The notes under the pieces are model-generated. The model saw nothing but the letters and a program-made list of their open reading frames with translations, made no database searches and was not told where the DNA came from. 64,000 nucleotides of DNA from Verrucomicrobiota bacterium. Its GTDB lineage: Bacteria; Verrucomicrobiota; Verrucomicrobiia; Verrucomicrobiales; Akkermansiaceae. Every line of letters starts with the position of its first letter. Position 1 is the first letter of the stretch. The stretch lies in assembly GCA_004294095.1 (NCBI GenBank), contig RDZR01000026.1, forward strand, positions 16,411-80,410. The letters are read 5' to 3'. Below are positions 21,991 through 37,839 of this stretch, one piece after another. The translations under genes and the position numbers were made by a program.

Positions 21991-21994
21991 TGGC

Positions 21995-23401
21995 TTAATA
22001 AGTGTTCCAGACAATGGATCCCTTTTCTACTGCATAGCAGAACTTGAAGTTACGTATCTTGATATTAGTGAATAGGTGGTCTGCCAACTCCACCTGCCCT
22101 GCCTCTCGGAGTTCGGCGATTGCTCTAGATTTATGTTGTTTGATCGTCTCGTGTGAACGGCCGCCCACGGTATTTCTGCGCACGTCGCCCAATGCCTTCC
22201 GAAGGGCTGCGATCTCGGTTTCGAGTATCGAGCGCAAGCGTCGATTGGCTGAGGCGAGCTGCGCCTCTTTTCGTTGAATTTCCCTTCGATACACGGCATG
22301 CGTTTCCTTAGCCGTGTCATCCGTATTCAGATTTTCCTGGATTGCTCGGTTGTTGTCGTAATCCCTACGATTCCCCCCATTTTCCCTTTGGAATGGATCC
22401 TCGTCGTCATCTTCGCCGTCCTCATCATCTTCGGCGTCTGACATGTCACCATCACCAGGGTTTTGATGAAGGAAGCCGACAGCCTCCTGGCCAATATCAG
22501 CAGCTTCACCACCAATCTGGTGTGCGGCAAACTCTTCATCTGGATGACGCAGCAACCACGCGATCGTTTCAAAATTCGGATTGTCCGGCAGGGAAATCAC
22601 TTCTCCACATCCGAAACTGATCTGCCATAGCGTGACTGTATCATCTGCCCATTGCGCGGGCGCAAGTTTGCTCCCATTCTTCTTCAACATGTCTAACTCT
22701 ATTTCCATTTCGTAGTCGCCTAGGCGTTTCGAATCGGAACAAGTAGAGGGACCTTTGGGGTACTTTTTGTTAAACGCTTTGACAAAATCCATGGCCTTTT
22801 TGGCCCGATTGAACTCTGGCGAGTTTCTTTTGATCCATTGTCCGTCAATCAACTCGTGAACAGCGATCTGGCAAGGCTCCTTCAAGCGACGGAAACGGTT
22901 GCGCCCGATACGACTCTGACGCAGGTACAGACAAACCTGGCGCAAGCGTTTGGCCAGCAGCTCCGTGTTGGATAGATCCGGCTTCTCCCTCACCATCAAT
23001 CGTTCCGGTGGAAAAGTCGCCGATGCACGAGAATGGAGCTCAAATTGGAGGAGTCGCGCCCGGTGCTCTCCGTAAGTGTCGTCCACGGTCGTGTCGCTTT
23101 CCACTCCGGTCAGAATCGAAACCAACCAAGCCGCCTTCCATTGACTAATGATGCCAAGAAGCGCGAGACCGTCGATGGGGTCTTCTGCCGCATCATTGCT
23201 AAAACTGATGTCGAGCGAAATCAGGTCGTAGGGAATCTCCGCTGCGCGACGGATCGCCTCCCGGCACTTCTGGATAGTGTCCGGGGCTTCAATGGTGCAG
23301 GGAAGCTTTAGATCATTGAAAATCTCCAAGAAGTTGCTTTTGATGGCTTGAGCCCATTTGGGTTCGTCTTCGACAATGAGGATGCGGAGAGGTTGTGACA
23401 T
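21995..23401 (-). CDS. Orphan response-regulator receiver protein with a non-canonical output region (REC-B)
   Basis: 'LIVEDEP' ... 'DLISLDISF' ... 'VSILTGV' ... 'MVREKPD'. This is followed by 'WQISFGCGEVISLPDNPNFETIAWLLRHPDEEF', a poly-acidic 'DAEDDEDGEDDDED' stretch, a coiled segment and 'ETIKQHKSRAIAELRE'. Confidence 0.8.
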   Translation of the reverse strand: MSQPLRILIVEDEPKWAQAIKSNFLEIFNDLKLPCTIEAPDTIQKCREAIRRAAEIPYDLISLDISFSNDAAEDPIDGLALLGIISQWKAAWLVSILTGVESDTTVDDTYGEHRARLLQFELHSRASATFPPERLMVREKPDLSNTELLAKRLRQVCLYLRQSRIGRNRFRRLKEPCQIAVHELIDGQWIKRNSPEFNRAKKAMDFVKAFNKKYPKGPSTCSDSKRLGDYEMEIELDMLKKNGSKLAPAQWADDTVTLWQISFGCGEVISLPDNPNFETIAWLLRHPDEEFAAHQIGGEAADIGQEAVGFLHQNPGDGDMSDAEDDEDGEDDDEDPFQRENGGNRRDYDNNRAIQENLNTDDTAKETHAVYRREIQRKEAQLASANRRLRSILETEIAALRKALGDVRRNTVGGRSHETIKQHKSRAIAELREAGQVELADHLFTNIKIRNFKFCYAVEKGSIVWNTY

Positions 23402-23405
23402 AGTC

Positions 23406-24107
23406 TTATGGAGTGAGGATGATCTGGCGAAGGAGCGATTCTCCTTCTACAAACCATTGCGTGACGGGGTCTGTATCCGGGGCGAGAAGCCACTCACGGA
23501 TGCGATTCGCCAACTCATGATCGGCCAGTGGGCAGTATCGCTCCCAGCGGAGTGGCAGTAAGTTGCTCGCAAGCTTCAAAATTCGACTCCGGTTCTCTTC
23601 GGTATGCTCGCCCTTGCAGACTAGCTGGAGAATTTCCTTCCTGAGCGCGACCTGTTCATCAGTGAGTTGGGAATTGAGCCATTCCGTGAACTGATGCGGG
23701 CGCGCCTCGTTGCAGGCTTCGAGAATACTGAATAGGCCTACCTCCACGGAAACTGGGAGGCAATACGGCGAGGGTGTGGCCCCGCATCCTCGGTCGCCAT
23801 GGTGGCAATCGAGAAGCAGCCACTTCAAGCCGGGGTCGCTTTTGATGTCTCTGCCACCCTTCGCGCCATAGAGCCGCCAGAACGCGTCATGCCGCCATCG
23901 CGTCTGCGCTGAAGACTCTGTGGCGGTAGCAACTTGAAAAACATGCCGACAGCCGATCAGTGGTGATTCGAAAGGGGTGGATAGCCCCCACTTCTGCCTG
24001 ATCAGCCGCTCGTCAGGAATCGGCAATGCGTCAAAAACCTGCGCCAGTACGCTCGCCACCGGGCCGGAGCCAAGGATGATTCGTTGTCGATGCGGGCTTG
24101 CGGGCAT
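23406..24107 (-). CDS. Hypothetical 'GSGP' protein, partner B (paralog of 20042-20800)
   Basis: See partner A. 233 aa, with a 4-nt gap to REC-B and a 3-nt gap to the 875-aa gene. Confidence 0.6.
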   Translation of the reverse strand: MPASPHRQRIILGSGPVASVLAQVFDALPIPDERLIRQKWGLSTPFESPLIGCRHVFQVATATESSAQTRWRHDAFWRLYGAKGGRDIKSDPGLKWLLLDCHHGDRGCGATPSPYCLPVSVEVGLFSILEACNEARPHQFTEWLNSQLTDEQVALRKEILQLVCKGEHTEENRSRILKLASNLLPLRWERYCPLADHELANRIREWLLAPDTDPVTQWFVEGESLLRQIILTP

Positions 24108-24110
24108 GAC

Positions 24111-26738
24111 TTAGAAAAGCCGCTTAAACTCTGATCCCGTCAGACACTCATCCCACTTGCTGGCACTTTTACGAAGAAAACGTTCTGCAAGATAGCTGGT
24201 CGCAAGCCTATCGACTGGAGTCAACGAAACGCCACGCATGTGATTGATCGCTTCGACATTGTCTTTCATTGCGCAAGCCCGGAACAAAGAATTGAATGGC
24301 TCCTGAACTACTTGAATATAGCCACTACTAAACCATTCATTTGCCGATGCAGGAAGATCGTTCGGTCGATACAGAGCAATACGAGCTACCCAATCGGCCA
24401 GATAATGGATCTGCTTGGGATCAACCCGGTTTGGGGCAAAAAGCTGATTGCGGACACGCTGCAACATTTGTGGCCCTCGTCGGAAATTGTTGATAATATC
24501 CTCAAAATCGTTCAAAACCGCGCCTCTTGCAGTTCTCACATCTGGTCTTCCATCCAGAACCCCCCGATCTTTCAAGATTCCTCGCACAATCCTGTGAACG
24601 CCATCGCAATCTAAACTAGTATAGTTCCAATTGCCGGCTCGCTCTTTAAACTCTATACCGTAGGCAGCGTGCCAAGTGCTTCGCGTTGCAAAGTCGGCTA
24701 GCTTTTGCTGCCGTGTGGCGGCATGAACATAAACAGCATCAACAGATATATTAATCCATGGGTGCTCAAACAACAGCATCTCAAGGTTCTGCCTTAGCAG
24801 CGTGTGGTAGATGTTGTCCAACGCATTTTCATCGAAGAGAATCGCGCTGTCGATCACCCTGTCGCGGCTGAACCTAAGCAACTCGGGATCAAGAATGGAA
24901 AAGGCTGCAATTCGACTTCCGCTACCCCTCGCAGCATCAATTGCAAGCTGGAAACCCGCGACTTCGTCCTCCGAACCGGGAACTGGTTTTTTAGGAAAGT
25001 AACAAATACTATTGAGTCGATTCTCTCCACCAGGCCGGATTTGGTCAGGTCCGTAGTCCGAGACACCCCATTTTCTGGGCGCATGATTGACGGACCGATG
25101 GAATGCTTCCATGGCATCTTTGTTCTCATGTGACACAACAATGCCGCCCACGGAAAAGCCCGGATCCCTTTGATTGAACGGGTCTCCAGACTCGTCGATG
25201 TAGATCTCGATAAACCGCTTTGGACGTCCTGTATTTTCGTTCTCGCAAATCGCCCGATCCAGCCGAAACGAGGCCAAGGCTTTTCGCGTGTCCATAATCT
25301 TGCAAGCATGATCGACAGCCGAGGAAAAATCCGACCTAATCTCGCCCACCATCTCGCTCCATGAACTACATAGTCCAGCGAGAATCGGCTTACGGAAGGT
25401 GGTGATGATATTTCCATAATCACGGAAAGGGGCAATCAATTCGCTGCGGTGGGTAGATGAAAAAACGATGATTGGCAGCGTTGGATCAATCAGTGCGACC
25501 AATCGTGGCAATAGCGTTTCGTCGGTGTTGGCCGCGTTAAGTTCGGCCAACAATGCCTGTTTTCCCTCTATCGTCACCCAAGGAAGATTCCTAGTTGAGT
25601 TCAAGAGAGTCCGGCCTAAGTCCTCAAGTTGAGATTGGAACTCCCTACCTAACTCCAAGCGAAGATCCAACAGAAGAACGAAATTCGAGTCGGCATGATG
25701 TGGTTCGCCAGTCAAATCAGACGGGTTGAGTGGTTTTTCGCTGGCTATCACAGCCGTGAGACGTTCGCAGAGGTTGCCCATTTTTGCGGGAAACTCTCGT
25801 GAGGGGATAGTGATGAATTCCGAGCTCCCCTCCCTGATCAGTCCGAAGGCAAACTGAACAAACCAGCTCCAAAGATCGGCCATATCGTCAATCATGACAA
25901 TCGAGGAAAACGCTTGCTGTTGTTGCTCAGAGATCCACCACTGAGAATTAGCATCGTTGTCATCTGCGAGCCTATTCGTGTTGGATTTGACTCCGCAAGC
26001 CGTAGCCAACTCCAAGAGGTAAGGAGCGATGGGGAAGTGCGTATTGAGTTGATTGACAAATTCAGAAATACACCCCGGAGCGGCTTGAAAGGGCAGTAAG
26101 AAAGCCCCAAGAACATTGCTCAAGGCGTGATGCTGCTCGCGGTTGGAGGTGAGTTCGCTCCAGATGGTGGATTTAAGGAGGCCACAGAGATGGGGCGTGT
26201 CTTTGAACATACTGCGCTTATCTAATTTGGAATCAGAAAGCCACTTGCAGATCGCTTCCAAGCCGGGAGCATTCAAGACTGCGGCACGGGGGACGAGGGG
26301 CTGGCCCAAGACGTTGCGGGCACCAAGGATCGTCTGCAGCGCACGCGCCGTGCCGCTGGCGGGGCACAGCTCCTGAGGGTCGATGACAGCGATAGCAGCT
26401 TTAGCATCAGGAAACTTCACTTTCCAGGCGGCAAGCCAAGAGGTGGCGGTGAAGTGATCGCGGAAGTTTATCTTCGTGAGGCTGGGAACATCCGTTTCAA
26501 AGACTCCATCCGGCGGATGGTTGCCTATGATCAGGATTTGCTTATACGCATCAGTGAGGTCAATTTCTCGTCCACAAATGGTTGACTTGCCAGTTTCGAG
26601 AGCCTGTATCCAGAGGGCAGAGAAGGTAATCGTGTCGTTGTAGTCGAGAAGAGAGATAGCTGGATTCGCTGTCTTCCCGGGGCCGTGTAGGATCCGCCCG
26701 AGAGCCTCGAAGAATGGTGATGTCTCGATGTTCTTCAT
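24111..26738 (-). CDS. 875-aa multidomain protein: unknown N-terminal domain + receiver-like domain + DUF3800-like C-terminal domain
   Basis: The central region carries 'VMIDDMAD' ... 'VLLLDLRLE' ... 'IIVFSSTH' ... 'TTFRKP', the receiver D-D/D/S-T/K-P pattern. The C-terminal region starts with 'IEIYIDESGDPF' and contains 'QIHYLADWVA', like DUF3800 (from memory). Confidence 0.6.
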   Translation of the reverse strand: MKNIETSPFFEALGRILHGPGKTANPAISLLDYNDTITFSALWIQALETGKSTICGREIDLTDAYKQILIIGNHPPDGVFETDVPSLTKINFRDHFTATSWLAAWKVKFPDAKAAIAVIDPQELCPASGTARALQTILGARNVLGQPLVPRAAVLNAPGLEAICKWLSDSKLDKRSMFKDTPHLCGLLKSTIWSELTSNREQHHALSNVLGAFLLPFQAAPGCISEFVNQLNTHFPIAPYLLELATACGVKSNTNRLADDNDANSQWWISEQQQQAFSSIVMIDDMADLWSWFVQFAFGLIREGSSEFITIPSREFPAKMGNLCERLTAVIASEKPLNPSDLTGEPHHADSNFVLLLDLRLELGREFQSQLEDLGRTLLNSTRNLPWVTIEGKQALLAELNAANTDETLLPRLVALIDPTLPIIVFSSTHRSELIAPFRDYGNIITTFRKPILAGLCSSWSEMVGEIRSDFSSAVDHACKIMDTRKALASFRLDRAICENENTGRPKRFIEIYIDESGDPFNQRDPGFSVGGIVVSHENKDAMEAFHRSVNHAPRKWGVSDYGPDQIRPGGENRLNSICYFPKKPVPGSEDEVAGFQLAIDAARGSGSRIAAFSILDPELLRFSRDRVIDSAILFDENALDNIYHTLLRQNLEMLLFEHPWINISVDAVYVHAATRQQKLADFATRSTWHAAYGIEFKERAGNWNYTSLDCDGVHRIVRGILKDRGVLDGRPDVRTARGAVLNDFEDIINNFRRGPQMLQRVRNQLFAPNRVDPKQIHYLADWVARIALYRPNDLPASANEWFSSGYIQVVQEPFNSLFRACAMKDNVEAINHMRGVSLTPVDRLATSYLAERFLRKSASKWDECLTGSEFKRLF

Positions 26739-27466
26739 GGCCGAAGTGTATTAAGGAAATCCAGTTTCTCGGAGAGCGCCTTGGATGCGGATACCAGATT
26801 TTGCCCGCTCTTTGACGCTTTTACGACCTCCGCCGCCAATTTGGTGAGATCGTCCGGTGGTTTAACAATCGTGATGCGGTTGCATTCTTCTGTCTCGATT
26901 CCAGACGCCTCCATCAAAAGCCTTGCAGCCATAACTACCTCGTTGAGCCATGCGATGTCGGTTGATGCGCATGCACCTGCCTCGTCCCGAAGTGTCCGGA
27001 GCACTTGAAGCTCTTGATTCACAACTTGTTTTAGGAAATCCGCGTCGCATCGAGGAGGCAGAACGCCTGCATAAAATCTGACACGTAAAGACGGATAGCC
27101 TTCCAGTGGTCCTCCTTTACCAGTTGCGGCTAAACACCACTCGCTTCTTGTTGCCAATTTTGTGTCGCCCCCAGAGTAAAGAATAACGTAAGGCTCGGAA
27201 CCCGCCGGGCAATTCCTCAGGCACTTTATAAACCCTTGAATCTGGACAGAGTGCGAGTACTCGTTCTCCCAGTTCGTTAGAGTAAGGTCAGGATGTTCAC
27301 CTCGCTCATGCTCGTGTGTATGAGCGAAGACAAGATCAACTGGATCGAATGTTGGTGGGAAACTGCTGTCATGCTCGTGTGCAAAAACAATCTCAGTCAG
27401 ACCACCAGTGGGAAATGCATTCTTCCACGCTTCAACGCGACAGGTATCAATAATGTAGATCTTCAT
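26735..27466 (-). CDS. Hypothetical 243-aa protein (possible degenerate flavodoxin/receiver-like N-terminus)
   Basis: An ATG ORF with an ATGA overlap onto the 875-aa gene. The strand pattern 'KIYIIDT', 'DLVFAH', 'YVILYSGG' is suggestive only, and there is no K-P. Confidence 0.5.
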   Translation of the reverse strand: MKIYIIDTCRVEAWKNAFPTGGLTEIVFAHEHDSSFPPTFDPVDLVFAHTHEHERGEHPDLTLTNWENEYSHSVQIQGFIKCLRNCPAGSEPYVILYSGGDTKLATRSEWCLAATGKGGPLEGYPSLRVRFYAGVLPPRCDADFLKQVVNQELQVLRTLRDEAGACASTDIAWLNEVVMAARLLMEASGIETEECNRITIVKPPDDLTKLAAEVVKASKSGQNLVSASKALSEKLDFLNTLRP

Positions 27467-27470
27467 GTTT

Positions 27471-30335
27471 CTATTTTTTATCGAATGTAATTGTCTGTTC
27501 GTCTCTGTTCACCGTGAATTTGAAAGCTAGCTCTAAATGCCCATACAAAGATATTGGGGCCGTAGTCTCAAATTCGGTGATTTTGCAGAATGCATCCAGC
27601 AGGACTGATGCTTCTTCGCACTTATTGCCGCCCACTTTCTCCGAAAGCGATTTTTTCAGCTTCAGTGTTACACTGAAGCTCTTACTGTTAAAGTTACCTT
27701 CATAATTCAGTATGATCTTTTCTAGCAACGATTGACTTCGCAAACTGTGCGCGAGCTCGGCAAGAACGATGGAAGGGTCTTTGTCGCTGAAAAACGCACT
27801 CGATGGAAAATCGGCAGGCTCATCAAACTCTTCATTCCCAGATACAACAATAATCGGGATTTCCGTATTCATCCCACTCTCAGTCATCTTTACTGTGGCC
27901 GCCTGCAGCAGCCTATGTAGTCGTCCTGAGGTAAACCGAACTCCAACTCCCTTGTTAGCTCGCGTCTTGCAGAAAACAGCTTTCAGATTGGCAAAGGGGC
28001 CTTTTGTGCGCGGGCAGGCTTGTGCAAAATTTGGATCGCAATCGACATTTCTCTTCAAGCAGTCTGATTGGACATCGTTTAGCTGAGACAATTGCGCGAT
28101 CATCCAAACAAAAAGAAAATGATCAAGGGTGCTCTGCCCGAAGTAATCGCAGACAACTTTCGATGATGACTTTTTTCCATTTCTCAGAAATGCCAAAGCT
28201 GCGGGAAGCCATGATTCATCAATTCCGCTTTTCAGATCGCCAGAATAACCAAGGATTCGGAACATAGCCCGAAGACGATCCAAGTGATGATTGCAAAACC
28301 AAGCTTCGTGACCACTCACACCTCCAGGAACGTCTTCGAAAAATCTGCCCTCCTCAAACCACAGCGAGATTCGAAGTGCTGAATCGAGAATAGCGACTTT
28401 CTTCTCCTTTTCCCAAATAGATCGCAAGCGTGAGTTCATAGCTTTGACAGCAGCCATCTCTTTGATGGGATAAGAAGGAAGTCCCAGAACCCATGATTTC
28501 CATTCGCGTCCGAGAACTCCGCCGGTGCGCTGTGTTGAATCGCCCAGCCAATAATCCTGGGGAGTAGACTCAGTTTTTTCCCGGCCAAACAAATATCGGT
28601 CAACGATTTCCAGCTTGGAGCTGACATCCCTATACCTGGGGAAATTGGACCAATCAGCTTCCAAACAGGCTTGGATCCAGGGACGAACAATCGTTATTCT
28701 CACAGATTCGTCAGTTAGCAGAACAAGGATGTCGTCGTGAAGGGACTTGAGGGTTGAGTAAAAGACATCAAAGGAAGTAGTTTTGGGATCAAATGGCTTC
28801 GGAAACTTGAGCGCGAGGCAAAACAATGGCAGACTGCCAAAATAGATGGGAAGCATGAAGTAACTCGGATAGTCCGTCTCATCTCCCCAGCACCCCCGTT
28901 TAAGCTTTTTGTTCTTACTGTCTGAGGAATTCAGTCCAAAGACTTCTAATTCAAGTTCTTCAAGAGCAATATCGACAGCGGTTAACTGGTAGTCCGAAGC
29001 CCATTGCGTAGCAAAGGCCTGAACGCTGCTGGATCGGGCGAAGCATGTCTGAAAAACGCCATTTGCACTTGGATAATGAGTTTGCGCACGACTGGGATGC
29101 TCAATCAGCATGGGGTGCGTGGAGATAGTGGTATCAAGCCCTCGGAACAACGGCACGATCCGGGCAAACACAAGGCAAGGGTCGAAAGGAAGAATAACCA
29201 ATGCCTCTCTGCTCCCGGACGTAGATCCTTTTTGGTTTTTCGGATCATCGAACAATGAAATCATCATTGAGATTCGTTCGGAGTTCGAAACCACCGATTC
29301 GTTGATCGAACCTTCTATTACTGAAAAAAATGCATCGTTTAGAATTCCCGCCAAGGGATCGCGAGAGACAAGCACATGGCAGTCCATGGCTCCCCATCCC
29401 GTCTCATGATGTAGGGACAATTGCCGAATGTAACTGACGTCTTTGTTCTCCCCATCCTTCCGAACAAGCATTCCATTTGTTCGCCCCTCCTTTAGTACCT
29501 TATCGGCTTGTTCGCGGGTGAATCTAAGCCCGGATGGCATACCCTCAACGCCGCCAAATAGCTCGGTGGTTGTGTACGCCGCCTGGGTAGATTTAAAGAA
29601 CCATCCATCCTTTCGATTTGCGGGTGGCGGCTCTTCCCAAATTCCTCGTCTAAGTAGCCTATCTGCGATCTTCTCCGTCTTGAGCCATAAGGTTTTACCG
29701 TCCTCCGGAGGCCGTCCATGTTCTAAATAAATGGCACCCACTTTGCTAAGATTACTAACAACTGAGTCCCATGTAGAATAGACATCGACCAGAAGAATTG
29801 AAGGGCGAAGATCCAGAATAGCGTTAGTCAAGCATTGCTGGTCAAAGTGAAACCAGGTGTGAGCCATGATCAGAAGAGCCGTTGTCCCCCAAGCGTCCTC
29901 ATTATCTTCCTTATCGAATAGACTTCTCAATGCATGATCGGGGCATGGATCACATACACTGAATTGAGCTTTAGACTTGGCAGTTTTGGCGCTACGATTC
30001 GCCTGCTCAATTGCAGCTGGAGAACAATCCAGCCCGTAGAACTCCAATTTTGTTTTTGATGCGAATTTCGTGAGGTGATTCAGGAAACTTCCCTCTCCAC
30101 ATCCGTAATCGACGACCCGCGTGATATGAGGCAGGGCGGGATCACTGCCACATCTAGATAAAACTCGACACCATATCTGCTCTGCAGATTGTTTTTGCTT
30201 GTCTTCGAAATCGGGGAAAAGCTTGCTGAACATCTTCTGTGCATAAAGCATCTTCCCATAGTCATGGGGTTCGTCCCTTTCAAGTGTTAGAGTATCACAC
30301 ATAATATTATTTAAATAGATGTAGGGATGCTTCAC
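27471..30335 (-). CDS. 954-aa protein: N-terminal class-I SAM-dependent methyltransferase fused to ~750 aa of unknown function
   Basis: 'VVDYGCGEGSFLNHL' (motif I) is followed by 'LEFYGLDCSPAAIEQA' (motif II acidic residue). I recognise nothing in the remainder. The GTG at 30335 overlaps the upstream gene by 29 nt. The alternative ATG at 30302 leaves a 4-nt gap. Confidence 0.65.
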   Translation of the reverse strand: MKHPYIYLNNIMCDTLTLERDEPHDYGKMLYAQKMFSKLFPDFEDKQKQSAEQIWCRVLSRCGSDPALPHITRVVDYGCGEGSFLNHLTKFASKTKLEFYGLDCSPAAIEQANRSAKTAKSKAQFSVCDPCPDHALRSLFDKEDNEDAWGTTALLIMAHTWFHFDQQCLTNAILDLRPSILLVDVYSTWDSVVSNLSKVGAIYLEHGRPPEDGKTLWLKTEKIADRLLRRGIWEEPPPANRKDGWFFKSTQAAYTTTELFGGVEGMPSGLRFTREQADKVLKEGRTNGMLVRKDGENKDVSYIRQLSLHHETGWGAMDCHVLVSRDPLAGILNDAFFSVIEGSINESVVSNSERISMMISLFDDPKNQKGSTSGSREALVILPFDPCLVFARIVPLFRGLDTTISTHPMLIEHPSRAQTHYPSANGVFQTCFARSSSVQAFATQWASDYQLTAVDIALEELELEVFGLNSSDSKNKKLKRGCWGDETDYPSYFMLPIYFGSLPLFCLALKFPKPFDPKTTSFDVFYSTLKSLHDDILVLLTDESVRITIVRPWIQACLEADWSNFPRYRDVSSKLEIVDRYLFGREKTESTPQDYWLGDSTQRTGGVLGREWKSWVLGLPSYPIKEMAAVKAMNSRLRSIWEKEKKVAILDSALRISLWFEEGRFFEDVPGGVSGHEAWFCNHHLDRLRAMFRILGYSGDLKSGIDESWLPAALAFLRNGKKSSSKVVCDYFGQSTLDHFLFVWMIAQLSQLNDVQSDCLKRNVDCDPNFAQACPRTKGPFANLKAVFCKTRANKGVGVRFTSGRLHRLLQAATVKMTESGMNTEIPIIVVSGNEEFDEPADFPSSAFFSDKDPSIVLAELAHSLRSQSLLEKIILNYEGNFNSKSFSVTLKLKKSLSEKVGGNKCEEASVLLDAFCKITEFETTAPISLYGHLELAFKFTVNRDEQTITFDKK

Positions 30336-31170
30336 ATTCCGCTATAAGAGTTGCCTCACTTTCGACTCCGGCAGAAGGGAATCCAAGATTCAAAATGGAC
30401 GTGGTCCTGGCCCCAAAAATTTCAACGGCGCGCATTGATCCCAATTCAACGTAATGCCTACAAACAGATGGAAAAAGGCTAACAAAGGCAGTGGCGCCTG
30501 TTCGAGTGGTTGCCTCGTATATCATTTCTGCAACTTCTCCTGTGCAATCCGCTGACTTTCCCGTGCAATACGCTTCCTGCAATGCTCCGGAAAGATCCGG
30601 AAGTAAACAGACGACATTCCCATTTGACTCCTCTATCCGTGCAGATGGAGGAAGCTTGCCGTCCGCAATCAACTGTGCCATGCGATTTTTGTGACGATTT
30701 CGTAAGTTCATTTCACCATAAAACGGTGCGGTCGATACGGCGTTCGATACAGGAGGCTTCGGCTCTAGCAACGCAACGCTGTCAGAGTGTAAAGCGAGCG
30801 TTTCAGAATAGACCTGTGGTAACCCTATTTGGCCCGTATAGAAGCTGGACCGATTCACGTCTTTCGGGACGTATTGCCAATCGTTTACCGCAATCATCAC
30901 ATGCTTTTGTGGGGTCTCAAGTTCCGCCATCAGTTTCAACGCGAGTTTCCAAGTAAGAATGGGAAAGTGACCATAAGCCTCGAAAAATGGTTCTATAACC
31001 GGGGTTATGGGCTCACCTTGAACGCAGGAAACGAGGCAACCTTTTGACTTGTCATACATCAGCAGAAAATGCCCTGCCTGGAAAACAACGGATTGCGCAT
31101 CCCCTACAGCCGCGATCGTCAAATCGCGAAGAGCTTCGTAGTCTTTAGGAAAATGGTGCGTAAGATTCAT
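30307..31170 (-). CDS. Hypothetical 287-aa protein translationally coupled to the cysteine desulfurase
   Basis: An ATG ORF with an ATGA overlap onto the desulfurase stop. It contains a Cys pair, 'CTGKSADCTGE'. No known family and no PP-loop SGGxDS. Confidence 0.55.
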   Translation of the reverse strand: MNLTHHFPKDYEALRDLTIAAVGDAQSVVFQAGHFLLMYDKSKGCLVSCVQGEPITPVIEPFFEAYGHFPILTWKLALKLMAELETPQKHVMIAVNDWQYVPKDVNRSSFYTGQIGLPQVYSETLALHSDSVALLEPKPPVSNAVSTAPFYGEMNLRNRHKNRMAQLIADGKLPPSARIEESNGNVVCLLPDLSGALQEAYCTGKSADCTGEVAEMIYEATTRTGATAFVSLFPSVCRHYVELGSMRAVEIFGARTTSILNLGFPSAGVESEATLIAECEASLHLFK

Positions 31171-32303
31171 TGGCTGGTGGCTGGAGTGAGATTAAACGCC
31201 TGCTCCACCATTGTGGCGGCAGCGACAATCTCTTCTGAGGTGGTATGGCAACTGAGGCTGAAACGCAAAGTGCCGTTGGCACGTTCCTCCGAAAAGCCCA
31301 TCAATCTGATAACATGTGAGGACTTCCCCCCACTGGAACAGGCGGCCCCTGCCGAAACTGCCACACCAAAACGGTTGAGAGCGGCGACTAGATCCGCAGC
31401 GTTGCGTCCGGGACAGTAGAGGCTAATGGTATTTGAAAGGCGAAGGCTGAGACGGCCATGGACCTCAGAGCCGGGGATTTTCTCCAATAGATTGATCTCC
31501 AGCTGATTTCGGAGCGATTCTACACGAGACCCTGCTTCGAGACTTCGCTGGAGCAGGCTTGCGGCAACACCGCAACCGACAATGGAAGGTAGGTTCTCGG
31601 TCCCGGCCCGAAGTCCCTGTTGTTGATGGCCTGGAGCGGGAATGCGGCGGTGGAAATCACCAACGGGGCGCTGTTTCAGGAAGAGGATTCCGCAGCCTGG
31701 GGGTCCGTGAAACTTGTGAGCTGACAAGCTGGCCGCAGCACAGTCGAGGCTATCAAGATGCAATGGTAATTTTCCCACTGCCTGGATCGCATCCACGTGG
31801 AGTAGCGATCCGGCCTCACGGCAAATTGCTGAAACGGATGCGATGTCGGCAATGACACCTGTTTCATTATTGGCGAATCCGACGGAAACCAAAGAAGGCA
31901 GTTTGCTTGCCGCCCATCTCAAATAATCTAGATCGAGGGCACCCTCGGCATCAACTGGCACGCACAACACTTTTCTCCCATCTGCCCAACGCTCGGCCGC
32001 CCGAAGGACAGCACTGTGCTCCACTGAGGAAATTAGAATTTGGCGGATGTCGGGCGACAACAAACATGAAAAACCCAAGTTGATGGACTCTGTGCCGGAT
32101 GCCGTGAATACCAGACTGGCTGGTGAGGCAATACCGCATGCGGAAGCGGTGGTGTAGCGCGCACTCTCAAGGGCTTCCCTTGCGTTCCGGCCCATTTCGT
32201 GGGCGCTGGAGGGGTTGCCCCAGTTCTGACTGAGCGTATTCGTAACTGCGTCGATAACCTCGGGCAGCGGTGCGGTCGTTGAATTGTTGTCCAAGTAAAT
32301 CAT
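31167..32303 (-). CDS. Cysteine desulfurase (NifS/IscS-type class-V aminotransferase)
   Basis: 'IYLDNNSTTAP', 'GNPSSAH', 'FTASGTESIN', PLP-lysine 'SAHKFHGPPGCG', and the active-site loop 'SAGAACSSGG'. I chose the ATG at 32303. Confidence 0.88.
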   Translation of the reverse strand: MIYLDNNSTTAPLPEVIDAVTNTLSQNWGNPSSAHEMGRNAREALESARYTTASACGIASPASLVFTASGTESINLGFSCLLSPDIRQILISSVEHSAVLRAAERWADGRKVLCVPVDAEGALDLDYLRWAASKLPSLVSVGFANNETGVIADIASVSAICREAGSLLHVDAIQAVGKLPLHLDSLDCAAASLSAHKFHGPPGCGILFLKQRPVGDFHRRIPAPGHQQQGLRAGTENLPSIVGCGVAASLLQRSLEAGSRVESLRNQLEINLLEKIPGSEVHGRLSLRLSNTISLYCPGRNAADLVAALNRFGVAVSAGAACSSGGKSSHVIRLMGFSEERANGTLRFSLSCHTTSEEIVAAATMVEQAFNLTPATSQ

Positions 32304-32968
32304 TTTTGATGCAAAAAAGCCAGAGTGTGTTTCCGAATCGAATCTCGGTAGCTGATTTCGTCTGCGCGTTTGTCTGGGATTTGGTGGAAAATTGCTGAGG
32401 GAAAGCAGCACGCTAAGTGTTTAGAGAATGAGATTGGATGAAGTTCATCATTTGGCATTCCCAAGATCATTACGGGTTGTTGAATAGACCGCAGTTCGGT
32501 AAGGCTAAACCCCGGATCGAGGCCCAATAGAGAATGAAGCTGTTTGGGAATCTCTGATTTAGCGGAGGCAAAATCCACACTACATTCAGGCGTAGGCCAT
32601 GCGGGCCTGAGAAGTATGAGTTTGGTTACCATTGAAATGCTGGCTAAAGCGAGTTTGACGGCTACAAGGGCTCCGAGTGAAAGGCCACCCATTGCATGCG
32701 GTTGTTGAACCACCTGTTTGGAGAACCAAACTTGATCTTCAAGTAATTGAGATAACGTTGGCGATGTACAATCAGTCATTTCGGTGCTTCCATGCCCCCG
32801 GAAATTCATACTGTAGAGACATATTCCCGGCAGCGGCGAGAGAACTTCGAACACCTGATTTGCTGATCCACCCAATCCATGCTGAAAGACTAACGGATTT
32901 CCTTTACCTTCTTGGAGATACCTATGCGCATCACCAAATTCATGTTTTGTAGATTTCCAGGAAGGCAT
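32300..32968 (-). CDS. Alpha/beta-fold hydrolase
   Basis: 'LVFQHGLGGS' (HG oxyanion), 'GGLSLGALVA' (GxSxG), and a C-terminal Asp/His region 'NDELHP'. There is an ATGA overlap with the desulfurase. Confidence 0.7.
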   Translation of the reverse strand: MPSWKSTKHEFGDAHRYLQEGKGNPLVFQHGLGGSANQVFEVLSPLPGICLYSMNFRGHGSTEMTDCTSPTLSQLLEDQVWFSKQVVQQPHAMGGLSLGALVAVKLALASISMVTKLILLRPAWPTPECSVDFASAKSEIPKQLHSLLGLDPGFSLTELRSIQQPVMILGMPNDELHPISFSKHLACCFPSAIFHQIPDKRADEISYRDSIRKHTLAFLHQK

Positions 32969-32999
32969 TTTCAGAACTGACTGTATCGAACAACATCAA

Positions 33000-33122
33000 C
33001 TACTTATCTATTACCTTGGAATCTTCATGGAGGTATTTCACGAAGCGGATCACAGAGACAAGACTTGCTACTCCACTGATAATGGCGATCAACGGAAAGA
33101 GATAGATTGAGATTTGGAGCAT
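33000..33122 (-). CDS. 40-aa single-TM peptide downstream of the symporter (possible symporter small accessory protein)
   Basis: Minus-strand ATG at 33122 to TAG at 33000 gives MLQISIYLFPLIAIISGVASLVSVIRFVKYLHEDSKVIDK. It begins 12 nt after the symporter stop. It is absent from the ORF track, which lists no ORF shorter than 60 aa. Confidence 0.4.
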   Translation of the reverse strand: MLQISIYLFPLIAIISGVASLVSVIRFVKYLHEDSKVIDK

Positions 33123-33134
33123 TGATGAGTTTGG

Positions 33135-34535
33135 TTAAATTGGTTGACTCTCGGTTGTGGTCACTTTCGATCTGCCTAGCAATTGCCCTATCCCAAAGCA
33201 GACTAGCGAGGCCGCAATCCCAATTAGGATAGCTGGCACTGCACCCGGCTCCTTAGCTGCCTGCCACGCCCACGATGCTGCGCCGCCCCCAAGGATGGAT
33301 AGCCACCCTGCAAGGGGCTTAGCTTTATCGAGATAAAGCGCTGCGATTAACGGAACAATCATGCATGGAGCCCATATCGCATACAGGAAGAGGAGCCCAT
33401 CAATTATTGAGGGAGCGAATTGAGCCACGAAAATGGCCAAGGCAGCAAGCACGAGCGTTCCGCCCTTCGCAAGCAGCAATGACCATTTTTCTCCAGGGTG
33501 AATGAAAATGCTGATGATGTCGCGAACCAGTGAACTGGCGGCGGCATTCAGGCAAGCTTCCTGACTCGACATAACGACCGCCACAATCGTGGCGAGTAGC
33601 AGGCCGAACACACCAACCGGCAGAATAGCCTGTCCAGCTTTTACAAAGACGTCATCTGGGGCTGTGTCCGCAGGCAGTATGCCGTGCGCAACGATTCCAA
33701 AGGCTGCAACTATGGCCAGCCAGACTACCACGAAAACCCCAGCCATTAGAAACCCTGATTTGGATGCTGCTTGGGTTTTTGCCGAAAGAGCCCGGTTGGC
33801 ATACGGTGGAATTAGGACTTCACCCAACATGAAAGAGATGGCGATGCCAAACATCTGCCATGCAGTCATGCCTTTGAAGCTAGCAGAGGTAAGTTCAGAT
33901 GCTTTGTCGGAGAGTTCCGCCATACTCAGTGAGGACTGTCCGACTCCTAGCAGCAGTGTAATAGGAATTACAATGGCGATCATGGAAAACTGCATCCCTT
34001 CGGTGGCAATGGTTGCGCGCAAGCCTCCAGCGAAAGTCAACAGGGCGGTGGTTCCGGTGACGGCAATTAGGCAATACATCAACGGCCATCCAGTGATCAT
34101 GTGCAGCATCGAGCCGCCCACTTTGCCCATTATTGCGGTGAAGCCAACACACAAGCCGACTGAGAGAATTCCGGTGAGCAAATGGCTGAATGCGCCATAG
34201 CGTTTCCTCATGACATCACCCAGCGTGTTGCAATCCCGGTGTTGAGCGAGGCGAGGCGCGAATAGAAGGCCAGTAATAAGAATCTGGATCGAGAAAGTGA
34301 CCGCGAGGAAGTAAAATAAAAAGCCTTGGTCCCAGCTTTTGCTGCTGACGCCCACCGAAAAGCCCGGCCCAACAATGGTCGCTGCAAGGCTCGCGAAAAC
34401 CATAACCGCTGGAACCGAGTGCTTGCCCGTGGCAAATTCGCTGAAGGTCCTCGTTCGTCGTGTAAAATATCCCAGCACTCCCATGAGGACGAAGTATCCG
34501 GCTACGGCTGCGAGATCGAGAGGATGAAGGGACAT
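33135..34535 (-). CDS. Sodium:solute symporter (SSS) family transporter
   Basis: About 13 TM helices, and the N-terminus 'LDLAAVAGYFVLMGVLGYFTRR' is typical of the SSS family. I chose the ATG at 34535. The longer GTG ORF would swallow the palindrome at 34563-34587. Confidence 0.8.
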   Translation of the reverse strand: MSLHPLDLAAVAGYFVLMGVLGYFTRRTRTFSEFATGKHSVPAVMVFASLAATIVGPGFSVGVSSKSWDQGFLFYFLAVTFSIQILITGLLFAPRLAQHRDCNTLGDVMRKRYGAFSHLLTGILSVGLCVGFTAIMGKVGGSMLHMITGWPLMYCLIAVTGTTALLTFAGGLRATIATEGMQFSMIAIVIPITLLLGVGQSSLSMAELSDKASELTSASFKGMTAWQMFGIAISFMLGEVLIPPYANRALSAKTQAASKSGFLMAGVFVVVWLAIVAAFGIVAHGILPADTAPDDVFVKAGQAILPVGVFGLLLATIVAVVMSSQEACLNAAASSLVRDIISIFIHPGEKWSLLLAKGGTLVLAALAIFVAQFAPSIIDGLLFLYAIWAPCMIVPLIAALYLDKAKPLAGWLSILGGGAASWAWQAAKEPGAVPAILIGIAASLVCFGIGQLLGRSKVTTTESQPI

Positions 34536-34562
34536 TGGAGAACAGGCTATGTGTTGATTATT

Positions 34563-34587
34563 GGGCGTGACAGGATCGGTCACGCCC
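34563..34587. promoter_or_regulatory. Perfect palindrome GGGCGTGAC-N7-GTCACGCCC, 28 nt upstream of the symporter ATG
   Basis: 9-bp perfect arms with the same CGTGAC core seen upstream of the other island transcription units. Confidence 0.55.
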
Positions 34588-34780
34588 ACATTTGGGATCT
34601 TCGCGACAGAGCCTTTTACACGGCAATTCGTTGATATTCAAGCTTTCTTACCCGCTTTGGAACACACGGAAGGGAGAGGGAATTCAGCGTAAATTGGAAA
34701 CTCAAGGTGTTTTTTCCATCCACGATGCTTTCGATGATCTCAATTTTGTCGTGTGTTGCGGCGATCCCGCAGGAGAAAAT

Positions 34781-35377
34781 TTAGGTATTCAGTCGATCAA
34801 GTGCCCGGCGGAGTTCCTCGGTTAACTCGTGTTTGAAAAACCAATCGCGGAGTGCCTCATCGCCGACTTCGGTGGAGAGATTTTCAGCAGCGCCCACTTG
34901 TTCGGGGTAGCACTCTCCCGCCTTGAATCCATGGAGTCCATCCGCCGCACGGATGGTGAAATGCTCGGTGACTCCTTCATAGAGATCACGGAGGGATTCG
35001 TTCGCATGGACTTCGCGGAGCGTCTCCGGGTGGGTCATCCGGTGAAGATCTTCATGGATGAGGGTGGCGATTTCCTGGCCGACATCTGCTTTCAGAACGT
35101 GGGCGGGGTCTTCAAGATAGGTCGAATACCCGAGAATGCCTTCTGTCGATTTGATCCCGGCCTCGCGGGCGCTCTCGACGAAATCGTCTCGTTTTTCGAG
35201 GAGATCGGGGATTTCCCGGAGTTTTTCGAATTTCTCGGGGGCTATTGAGTTCGCATACTCTGCATGAAGCCGTCTTTCCGCGATTTCACGCGGGATGTCG
35301 TCCAGCGTTTCAAGCCGACGATCCGACATTTGAGATTCGCTGGCTTCGGAACTGAGTTCGCTGGACTGGGTTTTCAT
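34781..35377 (-). CDS. Hypothetical HExxH protein (putative zincin-like metallopeptidase/effector)
   Basis: 'TLIHEDLHRMTHP' with a downstream 'EGVTEHF'. There is an ATGA overlap with the HerA-like ATPase stop. I chose the ATG at 35377. Confidence 0.55.
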   Translation of the reverse strand: MKTQSSELSSEASESQMSDRRLETLDDIPREIAERRLHAEYANSIAPEKFEKLREIPDLLEKRDDFVESAREAGIKSTEGILGYSTYLEDPAHVLKADVGQEIATLIHEDLHRMTHPETLREVHANESLRDLYEGVTEHFTIRAADGLHGFKAGECYPEQVGAAENLSTEVGDEALRDWFFKHELTEELRRALDRLNT

Positions 35378-37839
35378 GGTTTCGGTTTGTAGGCGTGGGT
35401 TTGAAACGCTTCCCGGAGACGAGTCAACGTGCCGCGACTCAGGCCGGCAGCCGTTCCAAGAGAGATCAGAAAACACAAGGGGCCAGCGGGAAGTGATGAA
35501 ATCATTCCCGGTTGATCGCAGATCTCACGAGTAGCCCAGTCCCAAGTGGCGGACTCGCTTTCCTGGAGAACGCGCTGAAGCTCGGCGAGGCGGCGTTGCA
35601 GGTGGGCGGGGTTGGCTCCCGAGAGTTGGGCGGAACAATTTACGGTGGTGCAGACCGGGCAGGCTGAGATTTTACACACCGGATTTTCCACAGAAGGCAG
35701 CGGCAAATGAGGCAAGGGAAGCCTCCCGTAGGTGATGGCTGGATTTGGCAGGCGCAGGCGGAATGGGCGAGTCCTGCGATCCGAGCGGAGGATGGCATCA
35801 CCCACAGGCAGAGCACCGAGTAGGTCGATCTGGTTGGCTGGGAGTCCGGCGGCCCGTCCGGCGAGTTCGCGGTCGGCGGGATGGTCAAGGCGATGAAGAA
35901 TCTTCGTGCCGGTATTGGCAATTACAGATGGAACAAGTGCCGACGGGGTTTGATCGACGATGATCATGCCGACGCCCAGACCGCGCATTTCGGCAAGCAT
36001 GTTGGCCAAGCTTTCGACGGCTTGATTGCGGGAGGCGTTGGCGGCGGTTTCGGGCACGGCTTTCAAGAGGCGGTGAGCTTCCTCAATCAGGAGGGCGTGA
36101 CGAAGTGAGTCACTCTGCCCCTCAAGCCTCCAATGATGCCGCAATTGCAGAGTGATCAATCCCATGATCAGGGCTTGGGACGGCGCATCCGTGAGGGCTG
36201 ACAACTCGATAATGGTGGGACGTTTCACCAAGCTGGCGATGTCGAGCCCCAGAGATGATTTAAGTTCGGGAGCCAACGGCCCTTCGAGCAACCGACGCAT
36301 ACGAAGCAGTAAACCGGCACGAATATTTCCCGTGATTTCAGCGCCGTATCCAAATTTTGACGCACTGCGGTCAATTTCATCGACCAGATCAGCGAGAGTG
36401 GGCGGCGGTCCATGGGGAACCAACCCGGCGAGGTTCCAGCCATGGTTTCGATAGGTCTGCTCAATCGCGGTGGCCAATACCTCCGGCATGGGAGCAACCA
36501 ACTCGAAAGCGGATGCAAACACCGTGAAGAGGGCGGTCGTGTGCTCAGCAAGTCCGACGCCGGGGGGCAAGGCCATCGGGTTCAACGAGAGGCGTCGGGA
36601 CTTCGGATCGCCGATGGCCCACACGTCAAGGTCTGCTCCAATCTCGCTATTCAGAAGCCGGCGATAGCCGGTTTTCAATCCGGGTTCGATGACCAGCCAT
36701 GGGATCTGGTGTTCACGCCATAATTCAAGCAACAGGTGTTCGCAGGTCACACTCTTGCCGGATCCCGTCATGCCGGCCACGAGCAAATGGCGACAAAGTT
36801 CATCAACGCCGATTTCAAGCCAAGCTCCAGGCTTACCTTGATCGTTGAGGATTTTGCCGGAAACGATGGTCCGACTCTCGGTTCCCGGAACTGTGGCTGT
36901 CGCGAATATGGCCTGCATCACAGGACCGTGTGGAGAACTGGTCTCTCTGATGCTTGTTTCCACGACAAAGCCGGGCATCTCCCGACGAGGTGGACGAGTG
37001 AGTGCAGCGGCCTCAGATGTCCGAAGGAAAGTCAAAGACCTTGGGTCACTGGCATTCTGCCATCTGATCGGCTCCGGTTGTCCTCCATCCGCTGAGTAGC
37101 AACCATGAATGAGTGAGCATGCCTGATTAAAGACTCTCTGGTCGGACGCCGCGACCAGAGTGCGCACCAGCCAACCGCCTTCCTGAAAGGATGAGGTGGC
37201 CCGGGACTTAGCCGCCTCCACAAGTTTAAGGTAGCGACTCGATCCAGTATGATTGTCCTTCTCCAAACCGCCTCGTGACAGATACTCGTCCCGGATATAC
37301 TGCTCATCGCGGCACAAGCGACTCCACTCGGCTTCAATCGAAGTTCTGGGTAACGCTTTAGCAATCACAAGAACCATGAATTCATGGCCTAAAAGCGTGC
37401 GTATGACAGGCTCAAGTCTGGCCGAAGGCCCGAGACCTGAATGCCCACCCATGGCACCACGAAAGGTAAGCGCATTGATTCGCTTGTCCAAACTGGAAAA
37501 ATCACCAGAAGGTTCAAGAATGGCACCCGTTATGTGAGTGCCAACCGATTCGGAAGCACCTAAGACAAGATCTGGCAGAACCAGTTTCCACGAAACTCCA
37601 TCTTCTTCTGCAACGGCGCAAACTCCCCAAGTCAGGCCAAGAGCCCACCATGAGCGCACCACTGACTCCCATGCCAGATCCGAGTCAAGTTCAGCATGTC
37701 CTGGGGCTGCGGCGAGTCCTCTCAACCGCCATGCAGACAAGCCATCGACCGGAAAGAAATTGGGCCAAATGTTAGACGGAATTTCACCTCGCAGCATGGA
37801 GGTGGCATCGGCAAGAGATTGGTTCAAAAGCAGGCTCAT
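35374..37839 (-). CDS. HerA/FtsK-like (DUF87-type) P-loop ATPase, 821 aa
   Basis: Walker A 'VAGMTGSGKS', Walker B-like 'HALLIEEAHRLL', and 'GMIIVDQTPSAL...TKILHRL'. A long N-terminal non-ATPase region and a Cys-rich C-terminus 'CKISACPVCTTVNC' flank the ATPase core. Confidence 0.75.
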   Translation of the reverse strand: MSLLLNQSLADATSMLRGEIPSNIWPNFFPVDGLSAWRLRGLAAAPGHAELDSDLAWESVVRSWWALGLTWGVCAVAEEDGVSWKLVLPDLVLGASESVGTHITGAILEPSGDFSSLDKRINALTFRGAMGGHSGLGPSARLEPVIRTLLGHEFMVLVIAKALPRTSIEAEWSRLCRDEQYIRDEYLSRGGLEKDNHTGSSRYLKLVEAAKSRATSSFQEGGWLVRTLVAASDQRVFNQACSLIHGCYSADGGQPEPIRWQNASDPRSLTFLRTSEAAALTRPPRREMPGFVVETSIRETSSPHGPVMQAIFATATVPGTESRTIVSGKILNDQGKPGAWLEIGVDELCRHLLVAGMTGSGKSVTCEHLLLELWREHQIPWLVIEPGLKTGYRRLLNSEIGADLDVWAIGDPKSRRLSLNPMALPPGVGLAEHTTALFTVFASAFELVAPMPEVLATAIEQTYRNHGWNLAGLVPHGPPPTLADLVDEIDRSASKFGYGAEITGNIRAGLLLRMRRLLEGPLAPELKSSLGLDIASLVKRPTIIELSALTDAPSQALIMGLITLQLRHHWRLEGQSDSLRHALLIEEAHRLLKAVPETAANASRNQAVESLANMLAEMRGLGVGMIIVDQTPSALVPSVIANTGTKILHRLDHPADRELAGRAAGLPANQIDLLGALPVGDAILRSDRRTRPFRLRLPNPAITYGRLPLPHLPLPSVENPVCKISACPVCTTVNCSAQLSGANPAHLQRRLAELQRVLQESESATWDWATREICDQPGMISSLPAGPLCFLISLGTAAGLSRGTLTRLREAFQTHAYKPKP

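Follow-up and report, generated by a model that had tools for sequence, protein, structure and literature searches.

A cysteine desulfurase paired with a protein of predicted class I aminoacyl-tRNA synthetase-like fold in a rare, horizontally moving operon of an Akkermansiaceae bacterium

In a 64,000-nucleotide stretch of DNA from a Verrucomicrobiota bacterium of the Akkermansiaceae (assembly GCA_004294095.1, contig RDZR01000026.1, positions 16,411 to 80,410; hereafter the window), an accessory cysteine desulfurase, CDS378, is encoded beside X287, a protein predicted to have the Rossmann-like catalytic fold of class I aminoacyl-tRNA synthetases (aaRS). The two genes form an obligate pair that recurs in distant lineages, and the operon that carries them here is rare, horizontally moving and probably self-regulated. 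We tentatively propose, at somewhat less than even odds, that the pair carries out ATP-dependent thiolation of a small amino-acid-like molecule, which would then be methylated by a neighboring enzyme. The features of the module are as follows.

27471..30302, minus strand: MT954, a class I S-adenosylmethionine (SAM) methyltransferase domain with about 630 residues beyond it (Pfam, AF2 model, VIA structural comparison)
30307..31170, minus strand: X287, 287 aa, family with a predicted class I aaRS-like catalytic fold (AF2 model, structural comparison, alignments)
31167..32303, minus strand: CDS378, accessory NifS/IscS-type (class I) cysteine desulfurase, 378 aa (Aminotran_5 and motifs)
32300..32968, minus strand: alpha/beta-fold hydrolase, 222 aa (Pfam and a GLSLG nucleophile elbow, GxSxG at residue 95)
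33135..34535, minus strand, likely ATG near 34534: SSF484, sodium:solute symporter family transporter, first gene of the module (Pfam)
34566..34590, no strand: perfect palindrome GGGCGTGAC-N7-GTCACGCCC, about 35 nt upstream of the likely symporter start

By sequence, X287 matches nothing in Pfam, the PDB or PADLOC. When 5.8 billion proteins were searched by word index, homologues came back in 61 clusters, all of about 285 aa, unnamed and without a Pfam domain; among 1.84 billion proteins, a profile that includes distant relatives reached 402 clusters (50% identity). Fused forms were absent from the best 150 of these 402 clusters (117-376 aa), no search having been aimed at longer fusions. The homologues fall into clade A, to which the window copy belongs, and clade B; Pfam searches of 44 clade-A members and 10 distant relatives gave nothing relevant. 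An AF2 model built from 44 sequences reached a pLDDT of 94.0 and a pTM of 0.92. In an exhaustive VIA comparison of this model with 48,161 PDB chains, the top match was the arginyl-tRNA synthetase (ArgRS) 6ao8 (Z 13.1, 197 residues aligned, 3.5 Å), and 44 of the best 50 matches were class I aaRS. Three more were the aaRS paralogues MshC, GluQRS and the C-terminal domain of PyrN, and the remainder were 4nar, KsgA and QueC at Z 7.0-7.6. ArgRS entries scored Z 11.2-13.1, MshC (3c8z) Z 10.3 and three cysteinyl-tRNA synthetase (CysRS) entries Z 8.9-10.1. Foldseek likewise ranked ArgRS first, both on the PDB (E 8.6e-5) and on viral models, where the matches are from giant viruses, while Protein Atlas queries with X287 and with residues 320-943 of MT954 gave scores of at most 0.86 and TM below 0.31, with weak GAF and histidine kinase leads. 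Collectively, the model and its structural neighbors indicate that X287 has the catalytic fold of class I aaRS, split by an insertion as in MshC, CysRS and ArgRS (Z 10.3, 10.1 and 13.1, respectively).

The initial annotation of this DNA had recorded that X287 lacks a PP-loop, and indeed neither SGGxDS nor a Walker A motif was found by pattern search; QueC, the sole PP-loop protein among the best 50 VIA matches, aligned over 125 residues at Z 7.0. The sulfurtransferase or persulfide-carrier fold that it had considered for X287 is not borne out by the model, which resembles the aaRS catalytic core and not rhodanese, TusA, SufE or a PP-loop protein.

Residues invariant in both clades include G33-H34-F35, F69-P70, V95-N-D-W-Q-Y100, E153, C209, P234-x-x-C237 and G244. 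In the model, G33-H34-F35 directly follows strand 27-31, F69-P70 stands at the start of a helix, VNDWQY closes strand 88-96, and C209 and C237 occupy helix N-termini; a third cysteine precedes C209 by 4-6 residues in both clades. The G33-H34 pair, placed directly after the first strand, is a candidate counterpart of the aaRS HIGH motif, and near the loop equivalent to KMSKS clade A has GFPSxG and clade B GGSGE. The catalytic-type fold takes up all 287 residues, with no anticodon-binding domain, and neither the model nor the structural comparison revealed an RNA- or DNA-binding domain in X287. Similarly to the tRNA-independent class I aaRS paralogues, of which MshC is an example (PMC5370406), X287 stands alone without tRNA-binding modules. 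It differs from MshC, CysRS and class I aaRS more broadly in its lack of detectable sequence similarity, in having only a putative xxGH of HIGH and no KMSKS, in its much smaller size, in its own invariant VNDWQY and C-x(n)-C + C motifs and in being always encoded next to a cysteine desulfurase. As a separate observation, the CysRS of the host (L087, contig C113) has HIGN (PAHIGNFR) in place of the canonical HIGH.

The association with the desulfurase is conserved. A desulfurase gene lies beside the X287 gene or at most three genes away in 22 of 22 genome loci, and among loci with enough flanking sequence the pairing holds in 15 of 16 for clade A and 20 of 20 for clade B, counts that are not fully independent owing to near-duplicate loci (L012/L056, L048/L049 and L052/L054). 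The same sub-clades appear in the X287 tree as in the desulfurase tree, and the latter, which has one outgroup, is compatible with a pairing that arose once or twice. The initial annotation had grouped the hydrolase, the desulfurase and X287 as a trio; desulfurase and X287, joined by the methyltransferase fusion, do form a conserved module, while the hydrolase falls outside the conserved unit.

CDS378 matches Pfam Aminotran_5 over residues 2-359 (2.5e-61) and has the class V fold, PLP (pyridoxal phosphate) lysine and flexible-loop catalytic cysteine that define class I cysteine desulfurases. Lys197 (SAHKFHG) and the persulfide Cys322 (GAACSSGG), both quoted by the initial annotation along with the X287 motif CTGKSADCTGE (Cys202, Cys209), are present in the translations, and the two desulfurase residues are kept in 43 of 43 sequences, window copy included. 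In the host genome (3.0 Mb, 113 contigs, 97% complete) there are nine Aminotran_5 matches, among them a SufS above its cut-off (492.6 bits against 475.1) and a second NifS-type gene (404 bits) that lies elsewhere in the genome. CDS378 is therefore not the only IscS/NifS copy of the organism, and because of these other genes we regard it as an accessory and not a housekeeping desulfurase, as the initial annotation had supposed. Its identity to the NifS-type copy of the host is 42%, compared with 30-33% to the desulfurases paired with clade-B X287 homologues, and it stays under every NCBIfam equivalog cut-off (NifS 315.3 vs 530.75, DndA 231.5 vs 480, IscS 215.5 vs 643.2). Its best PADLOC matches are SspA (317 bits) and DndA (313 bits). 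The host NifS-type gene outscores CDS378 on the NCBIfam DndA model (292.6 vs 231.5 bits), and the SspA and DndA models score on any NifS-type enzyme. A complex prediction of CDS378 with X287, each with its own alignment, scored 0.00 in both runs and gave no answer either way.

Thirty clade-A loci extend 600 bp or more downstream; in 28 of them the methyltransferase fusion directly follows X287, as a protein of 800-1300 aa, and the two loci missing a match to the fusion carry a member of the same cluster. In MT954, Pfam detects Methyltransf_31 (6.3e-8) and Methyltransf_25 (3.7e-7), and the SAM-binding motif G67-C68-G69-x-G71 is invariant. The AF2 model (pLDDT 78) places the methyltransferase domain at residues 1-315; VIA and Foldseek searches with the whole model reported this domain only, and all VIA matches lay inside model residues 1-328 except for two longer spans. 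The closest structures are 7wzf (Z 17.4, 228 residues aligned) and glycine-sarcosine N-methyltransferase (Z 17.1), and the nearest set consists of small-molecule or peptide N- or C-methyltransferases, including CcbJ, DesVI, TylM1 and CypM. Since mRNA cap methyltransferases are nearly as close (Z 16.8), the fold leaves the class of substrate unfixed. Matches to the DNA methylase BseCI (E 6e-7, the best among PDB sequences searched with the MT954 profile) and to PADLOC mad2 (7.5e-4, weak) cover the SAM-binding region only. For the C-terminal part we considered a histidine-kinase DHp+CA module, given an invariant His665 followed by D/E/N, and rejected it when hhalign against five kinases of the same genome returned a probability of 0.1%.

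Upstream, the module begins with a sodium:solute symporter that the initial annotation had left out of its trio. SSF484 matches Pfam SSF (1.6e-30) and, under its cut-off, TIGR00813 (1.8e-34), and has only distant PDB relatives (vSGLT, 9e-8); all 16 clade-A loci that reach 3.2 kb or more upstream have the symporter, at 41-82% identity. Ahead of it stands the palindrome listed above, which indicates that the unit starts with the symporter. CGTGAC-N7-GTCACG occurs just upstream of the symporter gene in 6 of 83 loci (L009:7131-7149, L031:65-83, L032:864-882, L048:7234-7252, L049:1312-1330 and L066:1899-1917) and the other 77 have none; L048 has a second copy (17726-17744) upstream of a response-regulator gene. 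Only the palindromic arrangement stands out, the GTCACG hexamer not being enriched across the window (33 found against 24.8 +/- 5 expected), and scans of the window for promoters and terminators stayed at background level. The palindrome is probably the operator of the operon, bound by orphan response regulators that the island itself encodes.

From the palindrome to position 21995, the minus strand is a tightly packed gene row (21995-34590). The three open reading frames (ORFs) singled out by the initial annotation are present at 32300-32968 (222 aa), 31167-32303 (378 aa counted from the ATG, the mechanical ORF extending back to a GTG at 32411) and 30307-31170 (287 aa). It had seen ATGA overlaps at three junctions: those at 32300-32303 (CAAAAATGATTTAC) and 31167-31170 (AGCCAATGAATCTT) exist, and the third does not, the X287 stop codon TAA (30309-30307) being followed by TATT and then by an in-frame ATG (30302-30300). 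The sole overlapping start at this junction is a GTG at 30335, with an overlap of 29 nt. Additional ATGA overlaps, which the initial annotation did not mention, occur at 26735-26738, between genes p243 and p875, and at 37836-37839, between the genes of a 329-aa protein and a HerA-like ATPase. Four-base overlaps are commonplace in operons, and those seen here are evidence of tight packing and nothing more.

The distribution of the module is sporadic. Among 61 genomes of the same genus and order, 40 of them high-quality, X287 was found in one, the window's own, and in none of the 36 others of the genus or the 24 from the rest of the order. Its GC content over 27-31 kb (0.465-0.49) is slightly below that of most of the window. 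Elsewhere the module is spread across phyla: clade A is represented in metagenomes and in metagenome-assembled genomes (MAGs) labelled Victivallales, Allosphingosinicella and Bacteroidales as well as one unclassified MAG, and clade B in Streptosporangiaceae, Pseudomonas sp. S31 and Pandoraea terrae. Some neighborhoods are of mobile or defense type (L009:4999-6698, L041:4025-6121, L011:651-4796 and L058:1537-6840), with AbiEii and a phage integrase, GmrSD, a 1381-aa TmtA-like protein (PADLOC 5.9e-50), an HD-CE protein and a CYTH-nucleoside hydrolase fusion.

The clade-A core consists of symporter, desulfurase, X287 and the methyltransferase fusion of about 950 aa. Downstream comes a protein of about 230-300 aa and then one of two arrangements: type 1, that of the window, comprises p875, a small protein and an orphan response regulator, and type 2 comprises a protein of about 170 aa, an AAA+ protein of sigma-54 type and, last, a large protein. 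This terminal protein carries, in L041 and L046, a C-terminal adenosine deaminase domain (Pfam 1e-38 and 2e-42) that most resembles the one in CARF-deaminase effectors of type III CRISPR systems; the PADLOC CARF_ADA matches (5e-65 and 1.5e-66) cover the deaminase part only. The clade-B pairs sit in different company, with the symporter and the methyltransferase each in 0 of 24 loci. Their neighbors are non-ribosomal peptide synthetase (NRPS) condensation and adenylation domains, Ddl-like ATP-grasp ligases, PLP enzymes of Cys/Met metabolism, a radical SAM enzyme and exporters; an EamA exporter and NRPS C-A-C genes are among the examples. The Pseudomonas cluster is inserted among flagellar genes. 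Clade-B relatives of X287 also match PF18830 (LPD16) over the equivalent of X287 residues 96-190, approximately (E 4e-10 and 3.2e-6), unlike the 44 clade-A members, X287 included, none of which match even at E 1. LPD16 is an 82-position model from polyvalent proteins of conjugative elements, listed but not characterized in its source paper (PMC5512222). Features in these other loci are as follows.

L041:16667-20134, L046:15634-19374: terminal large proteins with a deaminase domain
L058:16467-19316: terminal large protein with a receiver and an HD-CE domain
L014:7073-14214 (Pseudomonas sp. S31), L015:9788-18741 (Pandoraea terrae), L030:4789-11978 (Nonomuraea roseola): clade-B pairs in secondary-metabolite-like clusters

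In the sequence of events that we tentatively favor, the desulfurase would make an enzyme-bound persulfide from L-cysteine. X287 would bind ATP at the G-H pair after its first strand and adenylate an oxygen, of either a carboxylate or a carbonyl group, on a small substrate that is probably amino-acid-like and may be the solute imported by the symporter. Sulfur, probably held on a putative metal site (Fe-S or Zn) formed by C202, C209 and C237, would pass directly to the activated position and replace the oxygen, yielding a thiocarboxylate or thiocarbonyl product. The neighboring methyltransferase domain would then methylate this product, with the alpha/beta hydrolase as an optional tailoring enzyme of this lineage. 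Small-molecule chemistry is favored because the operon has a symporter and tailoring enzymes that vary between loci, because the methyltransferase domain is nearest to small-molecule and peptide methyltransferases, and because of the surroundings of the clade-B pairs. Class I aaRS folds activate amino-acid carboxylates, and an amino-acid-like substrate is favored for that reason. The initial annotation had cautioned that the target could not be deduced, and that caution still holds.

Parts of this scheme have parallels. In ATP-dependent sulfurtransferases that work with a sulfur donor, three cysteines hold a [4Fe-4S] cluster, as described in PMC9825150, and X287 shares with such enzymes of the PP-loop family (TtuA, TtcA, NcsA and archaeal TtuI/ThiI) a domain of the ATP-binding HUP class, three cysteines arranged as C-x(n)-C + C and an associated source of sulfur. 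It differs from them in cysteine spacing (x4-x6 vs x2), in lacking SGGxDS and in being nearer to class I aaRS than to the PP-loop protein QueC, and the known enzymes act on tRNA. A second parallel is YcfA-YcfC, the thioamide-forming pair of 6-thioguanine biosynthesis, in which an ATP-dependent activating enzyme and a desulfurase-related fold-type I PLP enzyme likewise bring sulfur into a small molecule; YcfC, which lacks the persulfide cysteine, is reported to act as a C-S lyase on a cysteinyl adduct (PMC12494993). YcfA belongs to another family than X287, and CDS378, in contrast to YcfC, keeps the persulfide cysteine. The general logic of an activating enzyme joined to a PLP sulfur enzyme is thus known, with no known precedent for the fold used here or for the conserved operon around it.

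Several observations weigh against the proposed thiolation. By pattern search X287 has no HxGH, with A-G-H at residues 32-34 instead, and no KMSKS-like string. The segment after the G-H pair is a strand in the model, whereas the classical HIGH motif leads into a helix. There is no sequence link to class I aaRS: the best match of the X287 profile among PDB sequences is unrelated (E 0.37), and hhalign against 24 CysRS gave probabilities below 1%. Conservation of C188 and C49 is confined to clade A. Moreover, the rest of the operon, with its orphan regulators, its large proteins that vary from locus to locus and, in relatives, a Cad1-like adenosine deaminase, hints at a role in signaling or conflict, for which simple biosynthesis offers no explanation.

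Among the alternatives, it is possible though unlikely that X287 is an MshC-like, tRNA-independent cysteine or amino-acid ligase, which would couple an aminoacyl-adenylate to the amine of an imported solute; its cysteines would hold a thiol-selecting zinc, and the PLP enzyme would process the cysteinyl adduct or supply sulfur separately. MshC (3c8z, 214 residues aligned, model residues 3-278) and the three CysRS give the longest aligned spans, but the ArgRS entries outscore them and the hhalign comparison with CysRS is not significant. C209 and C237 lie in the second half of the fold, the half in which CysRS and MshC place zinc ligands, and may correspond to these. The clade-B neighbors are amide-bond-forming enzymes, in keeping with a ligase, and MshC itself, a paralogue of CysRS, makes Cys-AMP independently of tRNA (PMC5370406). 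The persulfide cysteine kept throughout the desulfurases nevertheless fits an enzyme acting on free cysteine, adduct-processing C-S lyases of the YcfC type being without it.

We give similarly little credence to the idea that the module thiolates a DNA or tRNA base or a backbone phosphate and then methylates it, as the self-marking arm of a defense system. The initial annotation had drawn an analogy with Dnd and Ssp systems, and CDS378 does resemble DndA and SspA in being an accessory NifS/IscS-type desulfurase inside a mobile island, with SspA and DndA as its best PADLOC matches; the same models also score on the host's own NifS-type copy, as noted above. The analogy fails on the partners, given that the DndB-E and SspB-D models match none of the 12 island proteins. 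PADLOC finds on these 12 only SspA/DndA on the desulfurase, HerA, mad8 and an SspH fragment on an 821-aa ATPase, and the weak mad2 on MT954; apart from the latter, X287, MT954, p243, p875 and their homologues have no match, and Dnd or Ssp models match none of 20 proteins scanned from related loci. The partner of CDS378 is aaRS-like and not a PAPS-reductase-like ATP pyrophosphatase. Class I aaRS folds bind tRNA acceptor ends, which would suit a nucleic-acid target, as would the sporadic occurrence of the island across phyla, its defense-type neighbors (the HerA/mad8-like ATPase in the window, GmrSD, the TmtA-like protein and the integrase with AbiEii), the deaminase or HD-CE domains of the relatives' terminal genes and the BseCI match of MT954. 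X287, on the other hand, lacks the PP-loop used by known nucleic-acid thiolases and, at only 287 aa, any RNA-, DNA- or anticodon-binding domain. By fold, MT954 comes closest to enzymes acting on small molecules and peptides, no gene of the module is better conserved than the solute symporter, and the clade-B relatives lie in secondary-metabolite-like clusters. Taken together, DNA modification of the Dnd/Ssp kind is unlikely.

With comparably low probability, the module may be the small-molecule arm of an undescribed multi-gene conflict or signaling system. It would make or convert a methylated metabolite that contains sulfur, perhaps a derivative of the thio-amino-acid or thio-nucleotide type, to serve as a signal or self-mark. 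Such a metabolite might be read by the orphan response regulators acting on CGTGAC-N7-GTCACG, or by the sigma-54-type AAA+ proteins, which would in turn control the terminal protein, be it a Cad1-like adenosine deaminase, an HD-CE protein or p875. In that case, no class I aaRS-fold sulfur insertase would be known before X287. That CDS378 is a plain housekeeping enzyme for Fe-S clusters or thio-cofactors, with unrelated neighbors, is very improbable: its standard NifS/IscS-type sequence and 42% identity to the other host NifS-type gene would allow it, but the genome has SufS and that other gene, CDS378 stays under every equivalog cut-off, X287 was not found in 60 related genomes, and the joint inheritance with X287 in two distant clades contradicts it. 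The remaining probability falls to an explanation outside the proposed thiolation and its rivals (ligase, nucleic-acid modification and housekeeping).

To our knowledge, all well-studied enzymes that insert sulfur at the expense of ATP and with a cysteine desulfurase as partner use a PP-loop or a ThiF/MoeB-type adenylation domain. If the proposed thiolation is correct, a stand-alone partner with a class I aaRS fold would be a third, independent solution to ATP-dependent sulfur insertion, and X287 would represent a new branch of the aaRS catalytic core that does without tRNA. A literature search returned no published description of the module. The broader family of 402 clusters is unannotated save for the partial LPD16 match, so that one biochemical characterization would name the whole family and would point to undescribed sulfur-containing metabolites in Pseudomonas, Pandoraea and Streptosporangiaceae. 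The clade-A operon, for its part, is a tightly conserved, regulated set of genes, found across phyla and without a described function, whose terminal gene depends on the locus.

The 222-aa protein has the alpha/beta hydrolase fold and the GxSxG elbow by sequence comparison, scoring above the cut-offs of Hydrolase_4 (2e-9, 37.6 bits against 27) and Abhydrolase_1 (2.1e-8, 34.5 against 25.8). Besides the window, homologues occupy this slot only in L031 and L034; of the 16 clade-A loci that extend far enough upstream, one has the hydrolase, to which L034 and the window are added. In other loci the slot is taken by a radical SAM enzyme that binds B12 or by a CMD/AhpD-like protein. The hydrolase is a lineage-specific accessory gene. 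The conserved order continues beyond the methyltransferase with the following genes.

26735..27466, minus strand: p243, conserved small protein after the methyltransferase (homologues at 31-37% in L032, L033 and L037)
24111..26738, minus strand: p875, large conserved protein at a slot that varies between loci (homologues, alignment)
21995..24107, minus strand: p233 and the orphan response regulator RR468, end of the conserved type-1 order (clusters c11/c12 and c8)

No Pfam or PADLOC match was obtained for p243, and proteins at the equivalent position in other loci align weakly. Homologues of p875 occur in 7 of the 15 clade-A loci with at least 7 kb of downstream sequence; it has a weak DUF3800 match under the cut-off (E 0.0045) and no match among PDB chains by profile, and its HMM (hidden Markov model) does not pick up the deaminase-bearing proteins of type-2 loci. 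Receiver domains were considered for p875 and p243 on account of LFLDLRL, PIILFSSTG, FEKP, IYIID and VILYSGG, and were rejected (hhalign against eight receivers, probabilities of 0.25% and 6%), which leaves the receiver-like sequence as a motif-level hint only. Clusters c11/c12 and c8, to which p233 and RR468 belong, recur in L032, L033, L037 and L048. Between two copies of this small-protein/orphan-regulator pair, inside the island, lie genes for what looks like a second peptide deformylase, of 186 aa (Pfam 3e-43), and for a 197-aa OGFr_N-like protein (9e-14) at 20864-22014 on the minus strand.

No tRNA gene was found in the window, and two genes flanking the island are far apart in five genomes of the same genus, so no insertion site could be inferred. 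At 35374-38825 on the minus strand, a 329-aa protein is encoded in ATGA overlap with the 821-aa HerA/FtsK-like ATPase (PADLOC mad8 3.1e-18, several HerA models and the SspH fragment), followed by a 231-aa protein. The ATPase and its two neighbors lie upstream of the operator and are not conserved in other loci, and they are probably a separate defense-type unit; of the MADS gene set, PADLOC detected only mad8 on this ATPase and the weak mad2 on MT954. The high-coordinate border of the island is formed by a DUF4143 protein (39446-40240, plus strand) and a classical pair of histidine kinase and OmpR-type regulator (40244-42885, minus strand).

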